Shown: positions 5,148-14,831 of the stretch, one piece after another | How positions within the stretch are numbered: the first letter of the stretch is position 1 | How the letters are laid out: each line of letters opens with the position of its first letter | Source: a virus | Virus genome (UHGV): UHGV-0322133 | Reading direction: 5' to 3' (one strand) | Length of the DNA: 14,831 nt | Notes under the pieces: generated by a model | The model's input: the letters and a program-made list of their open reading frames with translations, nothing else | Told to the model about the DNA's origin: nothing | The model's database searches: none | Position numbers and translations under genes: made by a program

Positions 5148-6500
<1,353 letters not shown>

Positions 6501-6693: not shown

Positions 6694-6865
6694 AGCATTC
6701 AAAGCAGAAGGCTTTGGGGTGTGGTGAAGGGTTCATGGATGGGAATATGTCGCACGTAAAGCGGCGAGGCCTGCGGAACTATTGCCGAATTGAAGTCGGC
6801 CGAAGCAGGTCGAAATGGGTCTCCCACCTACCACACCACCAAAGCTAACTGACAGGAGAATCAAG

Positions 6866-7198
6866 ATGGATGCACAAACACGACGCCGCGAACGTCGCGC
6901 AGAGAAACAGGCTCAATGGAAAGCAGCAAATCCCCTGTTGGTTGGGGTAAGCGCAAAACCAGTTAACCGCCCTATTCTCTCGCTGAATCGCAAACCGAAA
7001 TCACGAGTAGAAAGCGCACTGAATCCGATAGACCTTACAGTACTGGCTGAATACCACGAACAGATTGAAAGCAACCTGCAACGTATTGAGCGCAAGAATC
7101 AGCGCACATGGTACAGCAAGCCACGCAGTGAAATGGGTGTGACTTGTTCAGGCCGCCAGAAACAACGCGGAAAATCAATTCCAGCTTATTACGATTGA
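6866..7198 (+). CDS. N: N antitermination protein, lambda type
   Basis: MDAQTRRRERRAEKQAQWKAANPLLVGVSAKPVNRPILSLNRKPKSRVESALNPIDLTVLAEYH matches recalled lambda N including the arginine-rich motif; RBS ACAGGAGA. Confidence 0.9.
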   Translation: MDAQTRRRERRAEKQAQWKAANPLLVGVSAKPVNRPILSLNRKPKSRVESALNPIDLTVLAEYHEQIESNLQRIERKNQRTWYSKPRSEMGVTCSGRQKQRGKSIPAYYD

Positions 7199-7528: not shown

Positions 7529-7852
7529 ATGGAAGCATTAGTAGTAGAGCGAAGCGAGGATGGCTACTGGACGCACCCAGAATACGCCAACCTGTTTGGG
7601 GATAGAGAGGTAATTTCAGCTGATGAGTTCAGATCTTTCTGCAAGCAGCATGGCATTGAATCATCAATTGTTGAAATGGAAAACGACAACAATCAAACGG
7701 TAATTGACGCGTATTTTGAAGATGGGAATCCAAACATCAGTGGATGGGAGCCAAGCATGCCAGATGGAGAAGGATGGTTTGTCGGTTCGATTCACGATAC
7801 AGAAGACGGTCCGATCTGCGTTTGGTTCAGGAATGTAGATAAGGCAGAATAG
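7529..7852 (+). CDS. hypothetical strongly acidic protein (107 aa)
   Basis: RBS GAGGTGAGAT; by my count about 24 Asp/Glu against about 6 Lys/Arg. Confidence 0.6.
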   Translation: MEALVVERSEDGYWTHPEYANLFGDREVISADEFRSFCKQHGIESSIVEMENDNNQTVIDAYFEDGNPNISGWEPSMPDGEGWFVGSIHDTEDGPICVWFRNVDKAE

Positions 7853-7986
7853 TCGGCCTTTATTTTTGGCATAAACAACAGAATAAACACAGCACTGTGT
7901 ATTCATTCCAACGAGTGAATACACGGAGCAATGTCGCTCGTAACTAAACAGGAGCCGACTTGTTCTGATTATTGGAAATCTTCTTT

Positions 7987-8012
7987 GCCCTCCGATGTGA
8001 GGGCCTTTTTAT
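7987..8012 (+). terminator. candidate rho-independent terminator upstream of cIII
   Basis: Stem GCCCTC/GAGGGC with 6-nt loop followed by CTTTTTA. Confidence 0.4.
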
Positions 8013-8076
8013 ATGCATAACAATAACGCTTCACTCGAGGCGTTTTCGTTATGCAATCAAATATAAGGAGTTACCC

Positions 8077-8211
8077 ATGATGCACTTTCAGCTCGCGGGT
8101 AGCGGCGTCATGTCCGCTTTCTACCCGCACGAATCTGAATTATCACGCCGAGTTAAACAATTAATCAGAGCAGCAAAGAAACAACTGGAGGCGTTATGCG
8201 CAATGAAATAG
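8077..8211 (+). CDS. cIII: CIII-like protein (FtsH inhibitor that stabilises CII), 44 aa
   Basis: MMHFQLAGSGVMSAFYPHESELSRRVKQLIRAAKKQLEAL resembles lambda CIII core (AGWPVAGCPSESLLERITRKL); RBS AAGGAG; internal start of ORF 7972..8211. Confidence 0.7.
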   Translation: MMHFQLAGSGVMSAFYPHESELSRRVKQLIRAAKKQLEALCAMK

Positions 8212-8348
8212 CCATCAATCACCAGATGCTTCGTGCTGCACAAAACAAAGCAGTAATAGCCAGATTTATTGGTGATTCAAAAATGTGGCTTGAAGCAAAT
8301 AAAGCGATGAAATCAGCTATCAACCTTCCGTGGTATCGCAGGAAATGA
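8196..8348 (+). CDS. kil: Kil-like host cell-division inhibitor (50 aa)
   Basis: Below the ORF-track cutoff. MRNEIAINHQMLRAAQNKAVIARFIGDSKMW...; IAxFIGDxKM motif as recalled for lambda Kil; RBS GGAGG; immediately after cIII. Confidence 0.6.
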   Translation: MRNEIAINHQMLRAAQNKAVIARFIGDSKMWLEANKAMKSAINLPWYRRK

Positions 8349-8429
8349 GTTTTACAGATAACTGGTCAGACGAAGAATTCATTCGTCAGATGAACAAAAT
8401 GCTCAATCAGCACAAAGAGAAGGAGAAAG

Positions 8430-8741
8430 ATGATGATTCTGACTCTGAATGATAAGCGTGAAATATCGCAAATAATCGCAAGTTTTACTGATGAAGATTA
8501 CGAGCGAATCAACAGTGAAGTTGATCGCCTCTGCAAACGTTGCGACCCAATAAGCGAAATGCTTCGCTCATATAAACCAGATGAACACACTAAGGACGCT
8601 ATCGACTGGCTGGAAGATGATGACTGTAACTATCAGGAAAAAGCCGCTGAATGGTTCTGGGATGCAATAACCGAAAGAGTTAAGGCTGAATATGCCTTCG
8701 CAATATTCAAACGCAGACACATTTTTGGAGAAGCAGCATGA
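8430..8741 (+). CDS. hypothetical acidic protein at the gam position (103 aa)
   Basis: RBS AAGGAG; stop overlaps recT start (ATGA); acidic, no family recognised. Confidence 0.6.
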   Translation: MMILTLNDKREISQIIASFTDEDYERINSEVDRLCKRCDPISEMLRSYKPDEHTKDAIDWLEDDDCNYQEKAAEWFWDAITERVKAEYAFAIFKRRHIFGEAA

Positions 8742-9649
8742 GCAATATCGTTGAATTCGTTAAACAGCAGGAGCAGTTATTCTGCGGAGCATTGACTGAA
8801 CAGACGGTGACATGGGCTAAGGAAAGCCAGTTTGCAATTCAGTATTTCCAGAAAAACGATTACCTGGCTAAAACAGCACTGGCAAACCCAACCAGCGCAC
8901 AGAACGCCATCATCAATGTTGCGGCGATCGGTATCACCTTAAACCCGGCTAGCAAACTGGCTTATCTGGTTCCGCGCGACGGCATGGTGTGCCTTGATAT
9001 CAGTTATATGGGATTGCTCCATATTGCAATGGAGTCTGGTGTTATCTCATGGGGTCAGGCAAAACTTGTTCATGCTAACGATACCTATGAGTCAAACGGG
9101 CTTGATAAAGCACCAACCCATAAATACAACGCCTTCGGTGATCGTGGTGATATCGTTGGCGTTTACTGCACAGTTAAGACGCCAGCAGGTGATTATCTAA
9201 CGGAAGAGATGAGTCTGGCTGAAATTGAGGCTGTAAGGAAAACAAGCAAGGCGGCATTCAGCGATAAAGGACCATGGGTAAATCACTGGAATGAGATGGC
9301 GCGAAAGACGGTCGTAAAGCGTGCAAGCAAGTATTGGCCTAAGGCATCACGTCTTGATAGTGCTATTCACGTACTAAACGAAGAAGAAGGTGTGTGGACT
9401 GAACCAGTTATGCCGCACAAATCAGAGGAATATATCCGCGAAGATGAACGGAAACGCCAGCAGGAAATTATGGAAAAAGCACAACTTCTTTGTGATGAAA
9501 TGGCTCAGGCAGAAAACATGGATGATTTGAAGCGATATTTTGCAGAAGCATATCGCCTGACATCTGGAATGAAATTGCAGCAGAACGTACAAGCCATTTA
9601 CATAGAATGCAAAGCGAAACTGGAGGTTGCCAGTGAGCAAACTATATGA
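8738..9649 (+). CDS. recT: RecT-family single-strand annealing recombinase
   Basis: GPWVNHWNEMARKTVVKRASKYWP matches RecT core (GPWVTHWEEMAKKTAIRRLFKYLP in Rac RecT as recalled). Confidence 0.85.
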   Translation: MSNIVEFVKQQEQLFCGALTEQTVTWAKESQFAIQYFQKNDYLAKTALANPTSAQNAIINVAAIGITLNPASKLAYLVPRDGMVCLDISYMGLLHIAMESGVISWGQAKLVHANDTYESNGLDKAPTHKYNAFGDRGDIVGVYCTVKTPAGDYLTEEMSLAEIEAVRKTSKAAFSDKGPWVNHWNEMARKTVVKRASKYWPKASRLDSAIHVLNEEEGVWTEPVMPHKSEEYIREDERKRQQEIMEKAQLLCDEMAQAENMDDLKRYFAEAYRLTSGMKLQQNVQAIYIECKAKLEVASEQTI

Positions 9650-10115
9650 AATAGCCAATGAATACGCAAAATTGATGGATTCAGATTTAGAGCCAGAGAT
9701 GATTGCTGACACAATAGAAGGCATGGAAGGAGAATTTACCGATAAAATAGAGCAACTTCTTGCCATTATTAAAAATGAATCTGGTTATGCTGAACGCCTC
9801 AAGGACGAGGCAAAGTCACTAAATGAGCGAGCCGCAGTAATTCAAAATAAGATTGACAGCATTATGGCGTATATAGCGTCATCGCTTGAAATGGTTGGCA
9901 AGAAAAAGATTCGAGCAGGTATTCACCAGGTAACAATCCGCAAACCGTCAGAAACTGTAGAAATCATCGACTCAAGCGCCCTTCCTCCTGAATACGTTGA
10001 GTTTGAAACGACAATTAAAGCCGACAAACTGGCAATCAAACACCAACTAAAAGCAGGAATAAATATCCCCGGTGCTCAACTCAAAGTTGGGAAACCTTCA
10101 CTTCTTATCAAATAA
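9633..10115 (+). CDS. Gp157-like protein (siphovirus Gp157 family), recombination-module partner
   Basis: GTG start 6 nt after GGAGG (track start 9627 is TTG); VSKLYEIANEYAKLMD N-terminus and predicted coiled coil; directly follows recT. Confidence 0.6.
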   Translation: MSKLYEIANEYAKLMDSDLEPEMIADTIEGMEGEFTDKIEQLLAIIKNESGYAERLKDEAKSLNERAAVIQNKIDSIMAYIASSLEMVGKKKIRAGIHQVTIRKPSETVEIIDSSALPPEYVEFETTIKADKLAIKHQLKAGINIPGAQLKVGKPSLLIK

Positions 10116-10126
10116 CGGTATCGCCT

Positions 10127-10441
10127 ATGAAAAAGACTCCATGGGAGAAATGGGAAGTCGATTTCTTGCGCGAAGTGGCGGCGACAATGCCAGTTGAAGT
10201 TATCGCTGAAAAACTGGAAAGGACTGAAAAAGCAGTAATGGCGAAAGCAACAAGGATTGGCGCTGACATTGTTAGCCGACTTCGTGGAAGACGATGGACA
10301 AGAGCCGAAGTATCACTTTTCGGTAAGTTCTCCGCAGAAGAAATAGCAATTGCAACCTGCCGATCAATTTATTCAGTAAGAGCTATGCGATACAAGCTAA
10401 AAAAACTCGATGAAGAAAGAGCAGGCATACGAATAAATTAA
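10127..10441 (+). CDS. hypothetical protein with two internal W-x3-E...helix repeats (104 aa)
   Basis: Segments [26 protein letters not shown] and [24 protein letters not shown] look like a tandem duplication of a small helical motif. Confidence 0.6.
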
Positions 10442-10457
10442 CAAAGAGGAATTAATC

Positions 10458-10622
10458 ATGAGAGGACTTGCATACAATCCCGGCATTCTTCCGGCAGAAA
10501 TGATTATTCGCCAACGCGTAAAGCCAATGCCATCGAGAGAGGAATTGCTTAAAAGAAAGAGTTTCGGTTCTGTTAATGACAACAAATATCTGAATGCGAT
10601 GTGGCGGAGTGGGAAGAAATGA
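10458..10622 (+). CDS. small hypothetical protein (54 aa)
   Basis: Below the ORF-track cutoff. RBS AAGAGGA; stop overlaps next start (ATGA). Confidence 0.4.
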
Positions 10623-11038
10623 AGCAAATGACACTAATTGAGATGGATGGATTTCTGAAAGGTAAATGCATCCCACGAGATTTAAAGGTTAACGAAACAA
10701 ACGCTGAATATCTGGTGCGTAAATTTGCTGAAGCGGAGGCCAAGTGCGCGGCGCTGGCAGCGGAGAATGAGCTGGCTCGTAAAGCAGTTCAGGCATTCTG
10801 CGATGTTGTTGGCGACAACACAGAGGTTATCTGCGAGGAGGTTGGGAGAGATGGCGTTCTGGTTATTTTGGAGGCCATGAAGGCAACAGGAAATATGCCT
10901 GCCACCGATGCTTTCCTGGCTGAAGTACGGGCGCAGGGGGTAGAGATGATGCGCGAACATCCATCAATCAAACTTTGCTCTTTGACGCACATATGTGACG
11001 AGTTAGCCGCCCAGATTCGCAAAGGAGGCAACCAGTGA
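10619..11038 (+). CDS. hypothetical protein (139 aa)
   Basis: ATG at 10619 translationally coupled to the preceding small ORF; internal start of ORF 10601..11038. Confidence 0.6.
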
Positions 11039-11679
11039 GCAACCGTTTTTACATGATGTGCTCGCGTGAAACTGTGGGTAATAACGCTTCATTCCATTGC
11101 CATAACGGCAATGGTTACAGTTCTAATATCGATCGCGCTCATGTTTACACGCTGGAAGAAGCCCAAAAAGCCTGGAATTGTGGTCGAGATATCGATCAGC
11201 CTGTTTGCGCTGATAGCGTGGATGCAATGGCTGTGTGGCACGTTGATTGCCAGTACATCCCTACAGAAAGCCTGATTGAGCCAGATTGTACTGCGTATGT
11301 GGCCTACAAAAAAGGTAGCTGGAACGGCAACGATGTTTACTGGCTTCAACATGGTGGATTGCCAACAGATGACTTCAGTAAAGCGACCATCTTTAGCGTC
11401 GCCAACAAAAACGAACCAGGAATAGTTTGGTTGCCATTTTCCATTGCTGATGCAGCAAAGCGCCGGACGTTCAATATCAATAACTTTAACCGCAGAACAA
11501 TGGTTCAGGGCGCAGGTTTGGTCATGCCTGACTGGTTGAAAGAGCAGAACAGAAGAAAGAAGTCGCGAAGCGGGAAGGTGCGTTGGAATTGTCCGCATTG
11601 CGGAAAAATAACTTGGCAGTACAGCCCATATGATTTTGAAGGCTGTAGTGATTACAACTGTGAAGGATGGCGAGAATGA
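11035..11679 (+). CDS. hypothetical Cys/His-rich protein with C-terminal CxxC zinc-ribbon-like motif (214 aa)
   Basis: GTG start 6 nt after GGAGG, overlapping the previous stop; ...RWNCPHCGKITWQYSPYDFEGCSDYNCEGW. Confidence 0.6.
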   Translation: MSNRFYMMCSRETVGNNASFHCHNGNGYSSNIDRAHVYTLEEAQKAWNCGRDIDQPVCADSVDAMAVWHVDCQYIPTESLIEPDCTAYVAYKKGSWNGNDVYWLQHGGLPTDDFSKATIFSVANKNEPGIVWLPFSIADAAKRRTFNINNFNRRTMVQGAGLVMPDWLKEQNRRKKSRSGKVRWNCPHCGKITWQYSPYDFEGCSDYNCEGWRE

Positions 11680-12371
11680 CAATTGACTATCAGGTACTGC
11701 GTGAGGCGGCAGAACGTGCAATGCCGGCAATGGAACGCCTGTTAATGTTGCCAGCTGATGATGACTTGTTAAGTGAACAGGAACTTAAAGATTACGGTGT
11801 GGATATTGATGCGCTCAACGCCTTCAAATTTCTGACCGGACCAGAAACCGTGCTGGCACTGCTGGATGAACGGGAAAGAAACCTGCAATACATCAAAAGC
11901 CGCGATCAGGAGAACGAGGATATTGCGCTAACGGTAGGGAAGCTGCGCGTTGAGCTTGAAGCAGCAAAATCAAAACTCAACGAGCAGCGTGAGTATTACG
12001 AAGGTGTTATCTCGGATGGAAGTAAGCGTATTGCTGAACTGGAGAAAAGCGAAGAGCAACTCATTAACGAGCGTGACCATGCTGAGTCTGCTTTAGCTGA
12101 TATGTACTTTGCAGCAACCGGGGATAGGCCGGAGTGGAGTAACTGGTTCGGCTTTTCAAATGCCGTAGATGCCGTGGTTGACAGAATTGCTGATTTAGAA
12201 GCTAAACAGCCATCACCAGTAGTACCGGAAGGACTGGTTAAAGCAGTGTGCTTCTATGAACAGGTTAAGCGTGAAAATCCGCCAGTCGAAACCGGAGCAT
12301 GGAAAGACGCTGTTGACTGGGTTCTCGAAGAGGCTTGTCAGGCTGTAAACATTGGCATCAAAGGAGAGTGA
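11676..12371 (+). CDS. hypothetical coiled-coil protein (231 aa; possibly Ead/Ea22-like)
   Basis: ATG overlapping the previous stop (ATGA); central heptad-like region KLRVELEAAKSKLNEQREYYEG. Confidence 0.6.
   Translation: MTIDYQVLREAAERAMPAMERLLMLPADDDLLSEQELKDYGVDIDALNAFKFLTGPETVLALLDERERNLQYIKSRDQENEDIALTVGKLRVELEAAKSKLNEQREYYEGVISDGSKRIAELEKSEEQLINERDHAESALADMYFAATGDRPEWSNWFGFSNAVDAVVDRIADLEAKQPSPVVPEGLVKAVCFYEQVKRENPPVETGAWKDAVDWVLEEACQAVNIGIKGE
12355..12371 (+). repeat. 17-bp direct repeat GCATCAAAGGAGAGTGA, copy 1 (gene-junction linker)
   Basis: Identical to 12849..12865; spans the last codons of one gene and the RBS of the next. Confidence 0.8.
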
Positions 12372-12373
12372 GA

Positions 12374-12865
12374 ATGCAAATTTCACCGGTTACTCTTCGT
12401 GTTGCGAAGGCGTTTATATCCAGACATCACCGACACAATAAACCACCTGTTGGGCATAAATTCAGCATTGGTCTGAGAAATGATGCCGGAGAATTGATAG
12501 GTGTGGCGACAGCTGGTAGACCTGTTGCACGACATTTGGACGATGGATTAACACTTGAAGTAAATCGCACATGTACCACAGGAGAACGCAACGCTAACAG
12601 CGCGCTTTATGGTGCTGTCTGGCGGGCAGCAAAAGCTATGGGTTATCAACGTTGTATTACGTACACCCAGGCAGATGAATCAGGAGCATCTCTTCGCGCA
12701 GCTGGTTTTGTTCGTGTGAAAGAGCTTCCTCCAAGAAAAAGCTGGGCGGAATCAAGCGTCGCCCTGCGGAGTAAACGCGATCCGGTCGGAAACGGTGGTG
12801 TTCCTCGTGTGCTTTGGGAAATCAGGAGAATGAGTACCACTGGCATTCGCATCAAAGGAGAGTGA
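12374..12865 (+). CDS. hypothetical protein, possibly GNAT-like fold (163 aa)
   Basis: RBS AAAGGAG at internal ATG of ORF 12335..12865; bracketed by the 17-bp direct repeat. Confidence 0.6.
   Translation: MQISPVTLRVAKAFISRHHRHNKPPVGHKFSIGLRNDAGELIGVATAGRPVARHLDDGLTLEVNRTCTTGERNANSALYGAVWRAAKAMGYQRCITYTQADESGASLRAAGFVRVKELPPRKSWAESSVALRSKRDPVGNGGVPRVLWEIRRMSTTGIRIKGE
12849..12865 (+). repeat. 17-bp direct repeat GCATCAAAGGAGAGTGA, copy 2
   Basis: Identical to 12355..12371; extended match CATT(G/C)GCATCAAAGGAGAGTGA. Confidence 0.8.
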
Positions 12866-12866
12866 T

Positions 12867-13064
12867 ATGGATAAAAACACCACTGCTTACTGGAATCTGT
12901 CACTTGATACCGAATGCCCCAAATGCGGTCACAATTTCGATCTGCTTTGTGACGCTGATTTCTGGGAGTTTTCTGGAGCTAAACAGGCATGTGAAGAAAT
13001 AAAAGGTTACGAAACATGCTGTCCAGAATGTAACCATGAATTTAAAACAGATTTCGTGTATTGA
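12867..13064 (+). CDS. small zinc-ribbon protein (65 aa)
   Basis: CPKCGHN ... CCPECNH pairs of CxxC; RBS AAAGGAGAGTGAT. Confidence 0.6.
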   Translation: MDKNTTAYWNLSLDTECPKCGHNFDLLCDADFWEFSGAKQACEEIKGYETCCPECNHEFKTDFVY

Positions 13065-13074
13065 GGCATAACAA

Positions 13075-13707
13075 ATGACCACTATTACCAGAGAACAGGC
13101 GCAGAAAATTATTGAAGCAGCCGATGAGGTTATTAGTGCGCTTGCCGGAACTAACGAGGATGTTCACCCTGGTAGCGATAACATGCTACGTCTGTGGGAT
13201 GACCTGAATGACCGTTACGCGCCCCCGGAAGTTGTGCGTGAGCTGGCACGAATTGCACTGGCATCACTGGAAGCAGAGCCTGTAAGCCAAACTTACAACT
13301 TGCCAGAATTAATCGAAGGCATGGAGGTTTCCATTGATGTAAGCACTTGTGATGCGGATTTAGGTAATCGCTATTTCGGTACCGTAACCGAGGCGTTAGA
13401 ACTTGATACAGCCAAGAATGGTTACATCCTCCTAGTTCAGGACGCAGAGCCAAACTTCGATATAAATGGCAACTCTCCGGTAATTCCGGATGGTTGGATA
13501 AGCTGTAGTGAGCGAATGCCGAAAAAGAATCAGAACGTACTTATTTCGGTGAATTTCGATAGTGATCTGGTTGAGCCGCTAATATGCTCCGCACGCTATA
13601 CCGGAAGTACCTTTCGGCGAGGACAAGCAACGATTAAGCCGGGTAATGGTATTGAGCAGGCAACTCACTGGATGCCGCTACCGGAACCGCCGCAGGAGGT
13701 AAAATGA
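13075..13707 (+). CDS. hypothetical protein with C-terminal DUF551-like domain (210 aa)
   Basis: C-terminal segment WISCSERMPKKNQNVLI...ATHWMPLPEPP resembles DUF551 as recalled. Confidence 0.6.
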   Translation: MTTITREQAQKIIEAADEVISALAGTNEDVHPGSDNMLRLWDDLNDRYAPPEVVRELARIALASLEAEPVSQTYNLPELIEGMEVSIDVSTCDADLGNRYFGTVTEALELDTAKNGYILLVQDAEPNFDINGNSPVIPDGWISCSERMPKKNQNVLISVNFDSDLVEPLICSARYTGSTFRRGQATIKPGNGIEQATHWMPLPEPPQEVK

Positions 13708-13964
13708 TGGATGTAAAAGAGAAGGTTTTGCAGGTGATGCGTTCCCGTGCTGCCCTGCAAGAGAAAGCTCTCGGCGGGGAATATCCATTCACGATAGCAA
13801 CCTGGAATCTGCGGTTGGCAATGGAGAAGGAATTTCCTGATGAAGAATGGCGTTCGGCAGATTTGCGCAAAATTCTTATGGAGCTGGCTAAAGACGGAGC
13901 AGTATCCAAAGATACCTATGCCAGCCGGATTGGTCAGGCGGTATGGAGACTGGAGGTGCGGTAA
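13704..13964 (+). CDS. hypothetical protein (86 aa)
   Basis: RBS GGAGGTAAA; start overlaps the previous stop (ATGA). Confidence 0.6.
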   Translation: MMDVKEKVLQVMRSRAALQEKALGGEYPFTIATWNLRLAMEKEFPDEEWRSADLRKILMELAKDGAVSKDTYASRIGQAVWRLEVR

Positions 13965-14003
13965 TGGCTAACCTGCAACTTGCCGTCAAAGGTGAATAAC
14001 AAT

Positions 14004-14030
14004 CCTCGCACTCGCGGGGATTTCTTTTAT
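14004..14030 (+). terminator. candidate rho-independent terminator, first of a tandem pair
   Basis: Stem CCTCGC/GCGGGG (one G-U pair) followed by ATTTCTTTTA. Confidence 0.4.
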
Positions 14031-14034
14031 CTGA

Positions 14035-14059
14035 ACTCGCTACGGCGAGTTTTGTTTTA
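14035..14059 (+). terminator. rho-independent terminator
   Basis: Stem ACTCGC/GCGAGT with loop TACG followed by TTTGTTTTA. Confidence 0.55.
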
Positions 14060-14070
14060 TGGAGATGATT

Positions 14071-14370
14071 ATGGCCTGTTCAACATTCAACCCTTTAACG
14101 TTACAGAAATACCAGCCAGACCCTGAAGATTTATGCTCACTGTGTGGAGTAAATCATGGTAAAGCCGCCATGATCGAATGTAAGGACAAAATCCACATTT
14201 GCCTTAATTGCGTTGATGTCCTCGTTGATATCAAAAATGAGAGAGAAGATAAAAAGCGTAACGAGGCTATTCGCGCATTAGATTCATGGATGCGAGATGG
14301 GTATAGTGCTGCGCAAATTTATGACTTAGCAATATCAAAAGGCGAAATACCAGGTGTGCGAATCGAATAA
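14071..14370 (+). CDS. hypothetical protein with CxxC...CxxC motif (99 aa)
   Basis: GGAG RBS 6 nt upstream of the ATG at 14071; CSLCGVNHG...CLNCVD. Confidence 0.5.
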   Translation: MACSTFNPLTLQKYQPDPEDLCSLCGVNHGKAAMIECKDKIHICLNCVDVLVDIKNEREDKKRNEAIRALDSWMRDGYSAAQIYDLAISKGEIPGVRIE

Positions 14371-14405
14371 GAAGCGCACTCAAGCATCTTTTGGAGAAAT
14401 CACTA

Positions 14406-14573
14406 ATGCACTTCCGAGTCACAGGTGAATGGAATGGAGAACCATTCAACAGAGTTATCGAAGCAGAGAACATCAACGACTGCTATGACCACTGGATGAT
14501 ATGGGCGCAGATAGCACATGCAGACGTAACCAATATTTGTATTGAAGAACTGAAAGAACACCAAGCCGCCTGA
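14406..14573 (+). CDS. small hypothetical protein (55 aa)
   Basis: RBS GGAGAAA before internal ATG of ORF 14391..14573; followed by a terminator. Confidence 0.4.
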   Translation: MHFRVTGEWNGEPFNRVIEAENINDCYDHWMIWAQIAHADVTNICIEELKEHQAA

Positions 14574-14588
14574 TGGCGGTTTTTTATT
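14565..14588 (+). terminator. rho-independent terminator
   Basis: Stem GCCGCC/GGCGGT with loop TGAT (containing the stop codon) followed by TTTTTTATT. Confidence 0.55.
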
Positions 14589-14630
14589 GCCTGATTTGCA
14601 GGTTCGATTCCCTATTCGGAGATAGCACTC

Positions 14631-14831
14631 ATGCAACACGAACTACAACCTGATTCACTGGTTGATTTGAAATTCATCATGGCTGATACTGGCTTCGGTA
14701 AAACCTTCATCTATGACCGGATTAAGTCCGGCGACCTGCCAAAAGCCAAAGTTATCCACGGGCGAGCAAGATGGTTATATCGTGACCATTGTGAATTCAA
14801 AAATAAGCTCTTAAGCCGCGCCAATGGGTAA
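14631..14831 (+). CDS. AlpA/Xis-family small DNA-binding protein (putative excisionase or regulator)
   Basis: 66-aa product with HTH-like segment LVDLKFIMADTGFGKTFIYDRIKSGDLPKA; RBS GGAGA; sits at the int-proximal end of the PL operon. Confidence 0.55.
   Translation: MQHELQPDSLVDLKFIMADTGFGKTFIYDRIKSGDLPKAKVIHGRARWLYRDHCEFKNKLLSRANG

Follow-up and report, generated by a model that had tools for sequence, protein, structure and literature searches.

A mosaic early accessory array of a P22-like Escherichia coli prophage carries a short Mom-related GNAT protein and a zinc-ribbon protein that may have a new fold

Which functions are encoded by the small genes that lie between the recombination genes and xis in lambdoid prophages, and do these genes act together or one by one? 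The question is raised by the virus genome UHGV-0322133, of which a stretch of 14,831 nucleotides (nt) (hereafter the window) was analyzed here. Positions 10127-14370 of the window, exactly from the first base of the first gene to the stop codon of the last, are filled by ten small open reading frames (ORFs), here named g1 to g10, all located on the + strand. An earlier note on this DNA had described them as about ten translationally coupled accessory genes, none of which could be assigned with confidence. The block is real, with RecT and Gp157 genes upstream and a TorI/Xis-like gene downstream, but the second statement proved too strong, as g2, g5, and g8 score above Pfam thresholds and g6 above that of the NCBIfam XF1762 family, all four families being uncharacterised. 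It is highly probable that the block is the accessory segment at the distal end of an early-left operon (PL-type, N-antiterminated) in a P22-like/lambdoid Escherichia coli prophage, and that it consists of independent single-gene cassettes that do not constitute a pathway. The region is of a known kind, i.e., an ea/exo-xis accessory array, and its particular gene combination is new. Two members stand out, namely, g6, which encodes a short GNAT protein related to the Mom protein of phage Mu, and g4, which encodes a zinc-ribbon protein that may have a new fold.

The genome context is that of an early-left operon. On the + strand, the block is preceded by genes for a cI-type repressor (5467-6099; Peptidase_S24 and HTH_3), N (6815-7198; N36 motif), cIII (7972-8211), Kil (8196-8348), RecT (8738-9649), and a Gp157/Mu-Gam-like protein (9642-10115). 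It is followed on the same strand by g11 (14406-14573; 55 amino acids (aa); phrog_676, E value 2.3e-38), which belongs to the same array, and by the TorI/Xis-like gene, which runs from 14631 to the end of the window. The genes for Cro, CII, a replication protein, and the DnaB helicase are divergent, on the - strand. The flanking genes were also assigned with the help of the annotation of the near-identical MP1 prophage. As the earlier note had recognised, this is the early-accessory slot of lambdoid phages; P22 has its abc/ea genes there and lambda its exo-xis region. The P22 abc/ea and lambda/Stx exo-xis regions occupy the same position, from the recombination genes to xis/int, on the same early-left strand, and the P22 and lambda genes are likewise small, tightly packed, and non-essential-looking. 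Counterparts in P22 can be named for g2 (orf56, 72% identity), g3 (similar to EaE), g5 (similar to EaD/Ea22), and g8 (similar to EaA). In contrast, the window has RecT and Gp157 where P22 has Erf/Abc1/Abc2 and lambda has Exo/Bet/Gam; P22 Abc2, EaC, EaF, EaG, and EaI are absent; and g4, g6, g7, g9, and g10 lack a counterpart in both P22 and lambda. None of the ten genes belongs to a structural or housekeeping phage family. The comparisons indicate that the host element is a P22-like (Kapi1/HK620-type) E. coli prophage, and the position of the block would be in keeping with the anti-defence or host-takeover role that had been proposed for it.

Near-identical genes annotated by PGAP or in phage records served to refine the gene starts. 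Neighboring genes overlap by 4 nt (ATGA or GTGA) at g2/g3, g3/g4, g4/g5, and g8/g9, and the other junctions up to g9 are spacers of 1-16 nt, with 1 nt between g6 and g7. The gap between g9 and g10, in contrast, is 106 nt long and contains two terminator-like hairpins on the + strand (14001-14022, 9 pairs, and 14033-14052, 8 pairs), each followed by a T-run. The earlier description of about ten coupled genes thus holds, but their coupling is not continuous and ends at g9. A third, strong terminator-like hairpin (GCCGCC...GGCGG TTTTTT) is located at 14563-14582 on the + strand, between g11 and xis, and together the three hairpins divide the genes into the blocks g1-g9, g10-g11, and xis. An Rfam scan of the whole window, including the hairpins, gave no match. 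Matches to sigma-70-like promoters are depleted in 9600-14831 (one found, versus 8.0 +/- 3.3 in shuffled sequences), which fits a single long transcription unit. Together with the hairpins, this depletion lends indirect support to early, N-dependent transcription. In the lysogen, the ten genes would be silent; infection or induction would lead to their co-transcription from PL and to coupled translation of g1-g9, and N-modified polymerase would read through the internal terminator-like hairpins. Both transcription from PL and readthrough, the latter expected from lambda biology, are inferred here, which weakens the operon reading.

The modular character of the block is apparent from DNA searches, in which pieces of the region were found in hundreds of phage records and about 4,000 E. 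coli genomes at 93-97% identity. The best coverage of the region is at most 49% for a phage record and at most 61% for an E. coli genome, the latter with the wider stretch 8400-14831 as the query. Among the partial matches, the best are to podophages and prophages of the Lederbergvirus type, i.e., Kapi1 in E. coli MP1, vB_EcoP-611R6, Gally, Louie, and IME10/HK620-like phages; P1-like phage-plasmids also match, over g4-g5. When the proteins were mapped onto six related loci, recT-gp157-g1-g2 on the left and g11-xis on the right were found to be constant, the latter as a conserved right flank in five of the six, and g3-g10 were variable, even among phages that are near-identical in other respects. 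The same mosaicism has been described for exo-xis regions, where DUF551 and other portable C-terminal domains are attached to Ea22 N-terminal and coiled-coil modules (PMC10834534). The comparisons show that gene content turns over by recombination at short conserved boundary sequences, which in the loci compared encode the last residues of the preceding gene (...GI[RK]IKGE-stop) and the ribosome-binding site of the next one.

Within the window, such a linker bounds g6 on both sides. It forms a direct repeat (CATTGGCATCAAAGGAGAGTGA / CATTCGCATCAAAGGAGAGTGA) whose copies are 494 nt apart on the + strand: copy 1 (12350-12371) lies at the 3' end of g5 and holds the Shine-Dalgarno sequence of g6, and copy 2 (12844-12865) lies at the 3' end of g6 and holds that of g7. 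The 22-nt linker, CATT[G/C]GCATCAAAGGAGAGTGA, ends both g5 (...NIGIKGE-stop) and g6, and is matched twice in the window versus zero times expected. In the loci surveyed (L006-L085, L002, L004, and L087), its 17-mer core is present on both sides of the g6 homolog in about 38 viral loci, whereas loci without g6 (611R6, Gally, and E. coli 317) have a single copy at the end of the Ea22-type gene. The gene before g6 nearly always ends in the above-mentioned peptide or a variant of it, whatever its body; the neighbors of g6 vary in nearly every phage, and 42 of 80 loci are without any other gene of the window. These comparisons show g6 as a 494-bp cassette between an Ea22-type gene and g7, and the window looks like the arrangement of 611R6 (Ea22, then g7) into which g6 has been inserted at the linker. 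A conserved boundary sequence of 17-24 nt with the GCATCAAAGGAGAGTGA core also ends many unrelated ea-region genes, where it encodes ...IKGE-stop and the next Shine-Dalgarno sequence, and degenerate versions of the linker are found at the ends of g1 (...AGIRIN-stop) and g10 (...PGVRIE-stop).

Independent cassettes have to be weighed against a block in which several of the ten genes form one multi-gene system, e.g., an enzyme-regulator pair of g6 and g7 resembling Mom and Com, or a complex of g4 and g5. The tight packing at g6/g7 and g4/g5 would suit such a system, as would the control of Mu mom by the small zinc-finger protein Com and the frequent annotation of g4 beside an Ead/Ea22-like gene, plasmids included. 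However, only 1 of 80 viral loci has g7 after g6, the slot being taken by at least ten unrelated genes; where g6 is absent, g7 directly follows Ea22, as in phage 611R6; Com belongs to PHROGs 13819 and 6417 and g7 to PHROG 4173; and Kapi1 carries g6 without g4, g5, and g7. Moreover, the 226 proteins encoded beside diverse g6 homologs fall into 169 clusters, and no conserved partner of g6 was found among these phages. Given the varied genes after g6 and the lack of conservation of g7, a Mom/Com-like pairing of the two is ruled out, g7 was rejected as a Com-like regulator, and a multi-gene system of any composition appears quite improbable. Still harder to credit is that g2, g7, g9, and g10 are not real genes but ORFs that arose by chance in a spacer. 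With 54-99 aa they are short, the ORF listing was purely mechanical, and the opposite strand has overlapping ORFs too, e.g., one of 213 aa on the - strand at 11089-11730, antisense to nearly all of g4. Each of the ten ORFs nevertheless matches a recurrent PHROG family (E values 1e-23 to 1e-119), and the four short ones do so over their full length (1e-28 to 1e-67); g2 passes the threshold of Pfam DUF2737, independent records of phages and of E. coli carry annotations of all four, and real operons typically show this kind of packing with ATGA overlaps. Family support was also sought for the minus-strand ORFs and none was found, and the 213-aa ORF is probably a shadow ORF, as it has no PHROG match.

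The sole gene of the block with a predictable enzymatic fold, which the earlier note had overlooked, is g6 (12374-12865, + strand). It encodes a protein of 163 aa with an isoelectric point (pI) of 10.9 that matches NCBIfam NF045478 (XF1762) with an E value of 6.2e-61 and 204.4 bits (curated cut-off 50); near-identical genes are named "XF1762 family protein" by PGAP. At 90% identity, the family comprises more than 5,600 clusters, nearly all of 150-165 aa; about 40 positions are invariant in the sample aligned, and the temperate phages in which the family is found are those of Proteobacteria, Actinobacteria, and Cyanobacteria. Homologs are 55-72% identical across phyla, and the value of 55% for the prophage copies of E. 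coli and Mycobacterium fits a universal substrate. No mention of XF1762 by its family name was found in the literature searched. The AlphaFold2 model of g6 (mean predicted local distance difference test (pLDDT) score 84.7) has a GNAT fold, and its top Foldseek match in the PDB is Mu Mom (8BV8, chain 8bv8_B; E value 6.6e-8, query TM-score (TMq) 0.70), an enzyme that performs Gly-tRNA(Gly)-dependent N6-carbamoylmethylation of adenine in double-stranded DNA. Among sequence profiles, phrog_1384, "Mom-like DNA modification protein," is hit by g6 with 1e-42 and by Mom with 7.8e-84; the g6 match ends at profile position 159 of 245, versus 218 for Mom. Many members of the g6 family have a precomputed match to Pfam Mom (PF25680). 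With hhalign, a narrow g6 alignment against Mom alone gives a probability of 4%. The kinship rests on the PHROG profile, the fold, and an alignment (A5) in which Mom was combined with seven XF1762 proteins, among them those of E. coli, Pectobacterium, Burkholderia, and Mycobacterium.

In alignment A5, the invariant columns include H58, R111, S124, and W181 of Mom, which correspond to H19, R65, S76, and W124 of g6; N121 and E150 of Mom are likewise invariant in the XF1762 alignment. The former four are essential (R111, S124) or important (H58, W181) according to mutagenesis of Mom (PMC13219725; PMC7261163, numbered 10 lower), which also classed R151 as essential and Y59 and Y159 as important. 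The canonical R/Q-x-x-G-x-G/A coenzyme A (CoA) loop of GNAT proteins is R-N-A-N-S in g6, aligned with R-N-S-E-S in Mom. Both proteins are very basic, and Mom is longer (231-241 aa versus 163 aa). Its helix-turn-helix (HTH)-like insertion (residues about 175-209) is replaced in g6 by a short conserved loop, seen as gaps of 12 and 17 columns in A5 and as a low-confidence loop at residues 120-144 of the model, in which W124, D136, P137, G139, and G141 are conserved. In Mom, this insertion has been modelled as a DNA-binding element, and its deletion abolishes activity (PMC13219725). As g6 is without the insertion, R151, and Com or late regulation, it is filed here as an XF1762 protein, i.e., a short sister form of Mom and not Mom itself.

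What g6 does can be proposed tentatively, at somewhat below an even chance: it would transfer an acyl or aminoacyl group to nucleic acid, most likely as a protective modification of phage DNA. A Mom-type GNAT would in this case modify, most likely, adenine in phage DNA and thereby protect the progeny DNA from restriction. The proposal is made because the catalytic core matches that of Mom, the protein is basic, identity is maintained across phyla, and the commonest Pfam family among the neighbors of diverse g6 homologs is a DNA methyltransferase. Several observations weigh against it. The match of g6 to PF25680 (22.7 bits) is below the gathering score of 27.1, and generic acetyl-CoA GNATs are nearly equal to Mom in Foldseek (E values 4e-7 versus 7e-8), so that the acceptor could be RNA, protein, or a small molecule. 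R151 of Mom lies in a four-residue deletion, Y59 is replaced by an invariant R and Y159 by L, and the HTH-like insertion is missing. Mu mom is a late gene, tightly controlled with Com, whereas g6 is in an early operon without a Com-like regulator. The methyltransferase association is weak, being a raw count of 4 of 148 neighbor clusters without a background rate. Finally, component hidden Markov models of PADLOC-DB matched none of the ten proteins, and peptides of g1, g2, g4, g6, g7, and g8 were not found in the supplements of two published accessory-gene screens; the anti-defence reading of the block is a deduction from its position.

It is therefore necessary to consider g6 as an ordinary acetyl-CoA GNAT that acts on a host protein, a polyamine, an antibiotic-like small molecule, or the amino group of an aminoacyl-tRNA. 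It would then serve host takeover or act as a toxin, e.g., by aminoacyl-tRNA acetylation as in the TacT/AtaT toxins, without any DNA modification. Hundreds of acetyl-CoA GNATs match the g6 model at E values below 1e-3, slightly behind Mom, and Mom itself binds acetyl-CoA in vitro (PMC7261163); the Mycobacterium prophage copies are annotated as "acetyltransferase," early expression suits host takeover, and g6 is without the DNA-binding insertion and R151 of Mom. On the other hand, the pyrophosphate-binding R/Q-x-x-G-x-G/A loop of these enzymes is exchanged for the Mom-type R-N-x-x-S, and R111, which is conserved in Mom homologs and not across GNATs (PMC7261163), is invariant in XF1762 proteins. 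Sequence profiles group g6 with Mom and with no acetyltransferase Pfam family, and no antitoxin-like partner is conserved beside it. An ordinary acetyltransferase is considered somewhat unlikely, and nucleic-acid modification is retained as the proposal for g6.

Individual homologs of g6 are found in diverse surroundings. In Burkholderia phage phi1026b (45361-47105), the XF1762 gene overlaps the start of a DNA methyltransferase gene immediately downstream. In Pectobacterium phage ZF40, it comes after the lysis genes and thus has a late location comparable to that of Mu mom, and in Mycobacterium abscessus prophages, e.g., prophi68-1, it is followed by an HNH endonuclease gene.

The second gene of particular interest, g4 (11035-11679, + strand), encodes a protein of 214 aa with a beta-rich N-terminal body, a basic linker, and a C-terminal zinc ribbon of four cysteines. 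The earlier note had counted two Cys-rich zinc-ribbon-like proteins in the block, which correspond to g7 and g10; the C terminus of g4 adds a third zinc ribbon. The g4 model has a pLDDT of 94 and no match among solved structures, and on the basis of this model g4 may represent a new protein fold. Its family comprises 147 clusters in a word search and 899 representatives in a full profile search, nearly all of 200-220 aa, with the four cysteines of the ribbon invariant and the basic linker maintained. A recognisable extra domain was sought in longer relatives and none was found. Among 5,426 complete E. coli genomes, g4 is present in 271. Of its 281 places there, 175 are on plasmids and fewer in chromosomal prophages; the plasmids listed are about 90-100 kb (e.g., NZ_CP172147.1 and NZ_CP009168.1), and g4 is usually found there beside an Ead/Ea22-like gene. 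Matches to about 11025-14000 in phage collections include the P1 and SJ46 phage-plasmids. Together with the plasmid copies of g4, these matches indicate an exchange of ea-type cassettes between prophages of the P22 type and plasmids of the P1 type. Two copies of a unit, [FY]Y......G.N..[FY][HW]....G...[ST]....A..[YF][TS], can be seen by eye in residues 4-45 and 87-127 (window 11035-11420) and also in the distant homologs P0314 and P0318, and half-versus-half alignment of g4 is not significant. Half-versus-half self-alignment indicated duplication for g7 only, with g1 and g3 likewise not significant. Single-sequence searches of the PDB with g1, g4, g5, g6, g8, and g9, as well as with a g6 profile, returned nothing.

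Most of the remaining genes belong to families known from P22 and lambda. The first of them, g1 (10127-10441, + strand; 104 aa, pI 10.0), encodes a tandem HTH protein of the sigma-70 region 4/LuxR-like type that matches phrog_11492 (4.6e-23) and phrog_323 (2.8e-20), the latter labelled "transcriptional regulator, D5-like." It is the internally duplicated helical protein of the earlier note, and the family alignment bears this out, as the unit W-T-x-x-E-[LV]...EIA..T.RS..SV..R is present twice in g1; relatives of 152 aa have three copies and match Pfam Sigma70_r4_2. The family is small, with 51 clusters in Enterobacteriaceae, and the first repeat aligns with the C-terminal DNA-binding domain of NarL (E value 0.005). 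Like P22 Abc1, g1 is located directly after the recombination genes, and phage Gally annotates an identical protein as "Anti-RecBCD protein 1, similar to P22 Abc1." Blastp found no similarity between g1 and P22 Abc1 (gp35). With hhalign, the g1 family weakly matches the C-terminal half of Abc1 (E value 8e-4, probability 24%), over one repeat only, with the shared motif W-[ST]-x-x-E...[EN][IV]A..[IL].GRS. Unlike Abc1, g1 has two repeats and no Abc2 partner, and an identification of g1 as Abc1 was not adopted, given the absence of BLAST similarity and the weak one-repeat profile match. Abc1, historically "anti-RecBCD 1," has been reported as a trigger of a P4-encoded abortive-infection locus (bioRxiv 10.1101/2023.04.06.535777). 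The predicted role of g1 is that of a DNA-binding protein, which is held with less confidence than the role proposed for g6.

The counterpart of P22 orf56, g2 (10458-10622, + strand; 54 aa), is a DUF2737 protein (PF10930, E value 5.1e-29; 100.4 bits, cut-off 25) that is found in all related phages compared. The next gene, g3 (10619-11038, + strand; 139 aa), is EaE-like (phrog_614, 6.8e-50), with 42% identity to P22 EaE over 76 aa. It resembles the C-terminal part of some Ea22-type proteins: positions 111-239 of phrog_368 match g3, and positions 2-144 match g5. The latter gene (11676-12371, + strand; 231 aa, acidic) is the coiled-coil protein of the earlier note and could be assigned to the Ead/Ea22 family (PF13935, E value 1.4e-34; 120.1 bits, cut-off 27), with 42% identity to P22 EaD over 123 aa. 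With lambda Ea22, g5 shares the N-terminal and central region of the family, the genome region, and acidity, a property described for the C-terminal domains of Ea22 proteins (PMC10834534). Its own C-terminal domain, which matches phrog_26213, is unrelated to the solved one of lambda Ea22, and searches of PDB sequences, that structure included, gave no match at E values up to 5. For g5, a role as an oligomeric modulator of the Ea22 type that acts on the choice between lysis and lysogeny is predicted, with lower confidence than for the roles of g6 and g1.

Downstream of g6, g7 (12867-13064, + strand) encodes an acidic protein of 65 aa with seven cysteines and a zinc ribbon of two CPxCxHxF knuckles (phrog_4173, 8.8e-28). 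Its internal duplication has a z score of 5.7 relative to shuffled sequences, and its Pfam zinc-ribbon matches are all sub-threshold. The DUF551-like protein noted previously is g8 (13075-13707, + strand; 210 aa), in which residues 140-207 match PF04448 (E value 3.3e-21; 76.3 bits, cut-off 22). This P22 EaA-like protein (phrog_60, 2.9e-55) consists of an N-terminal module (...ARIALASLEAEP), a middle segment, and the C-terminal DUF551 domain. It has 38% identity to the C terminus of EaA, and the ARIALASL segment matches EaA as well. In related loci, the N-terminal module precedes other C-terminal domains. The label "Lar-like restriction alleviation" in phage Louie was found to belong to a g8/EaA-type gene and not to g7, and was set aside, with no Pfam Lar match. 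A conserved phage protein of 86 aa is encoded by g9 (13704-13964, + strand); it matches phrog_2814 over its full length (3.1e-51) and has no match in Pfam, NCBIfam, or the PDB. The last gene, g10 (14071-14370, + strand; 99 aa; phrog_3680, 1.5e-67), encodes a C4 zinc finger with a helical tail. Its C-x2-C-x(n)-C-x2-C pattern (CSxCG...IC..CVD) aligns residue for residue with the N-terminal zinc-binding domain (ZBD) of ClpX, but g10 has an unrelated helical tail and is without the AAA+ module. The matches agree, and all are below threshold: zf-C4_ClpX (PF06689) at 15.9 bits (gathering score 27), NCBIfam ClpX at E values of 0.002-0.003 over residues 23-69, and the ClpX ZBD structure 2ds7 at 0.05, with identical Cys spacing. 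Together with g4, g7 and g10 are predicted to be zinc-binding proteins that bind host proteins or nucleic acids, which is the least confident of the proposed roles.

Outside the block, two further + strand ORFs without a Pfam match were observed, at 6024-6500 (158 aa), overlapping the 3' end of the cI gene, and at 7529-7852 (107 aa), between N and cIII. In lambdoid phages, such positions often hold superinfection-exclusion or defence genes.

As a region, the block is of little weight, since such arrays have long been known in P22, lambda, and Stx phages and it is another mosaic of known cassettes; the linker-bounded g6 cassette provides a clean example of single-gene swapping in lambdoid phages. 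The value of the locus lies in two families, namely, the mini-Mom proteins represented by g6 and the orphan-fold proteins represented by g4. The latter, with about 900 representatives, is confidently modelled, has no structural or functional relative, and is common on P1-like plasmids and in P22-like E. coli prophages. The mechanism of Mom, tRNA-dependent DNA hypermodification, was solved only in 2026, and for the long form with the HTH-like insertion; the XF1762 family is a much larger, extremely conserved short form, and as the Mom reaction has now been reconstituted, g6 is directly testable. A rather unlikely combined reading would be that g6 is an active enzyme that has kept the Mom core (H, R, S, and W) without the HTH-like insertion and places an acyl- or aminoacyl-derived mark on DNA or a conserved RNA, and that, separately, g4 has a new fold. 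If the enzyme were active, XF1762 proteins would represent a widespread nucleic-acid modification of phages that has so far gone unrecognised and is carried on a plug-in cassette of 0.5 kb.

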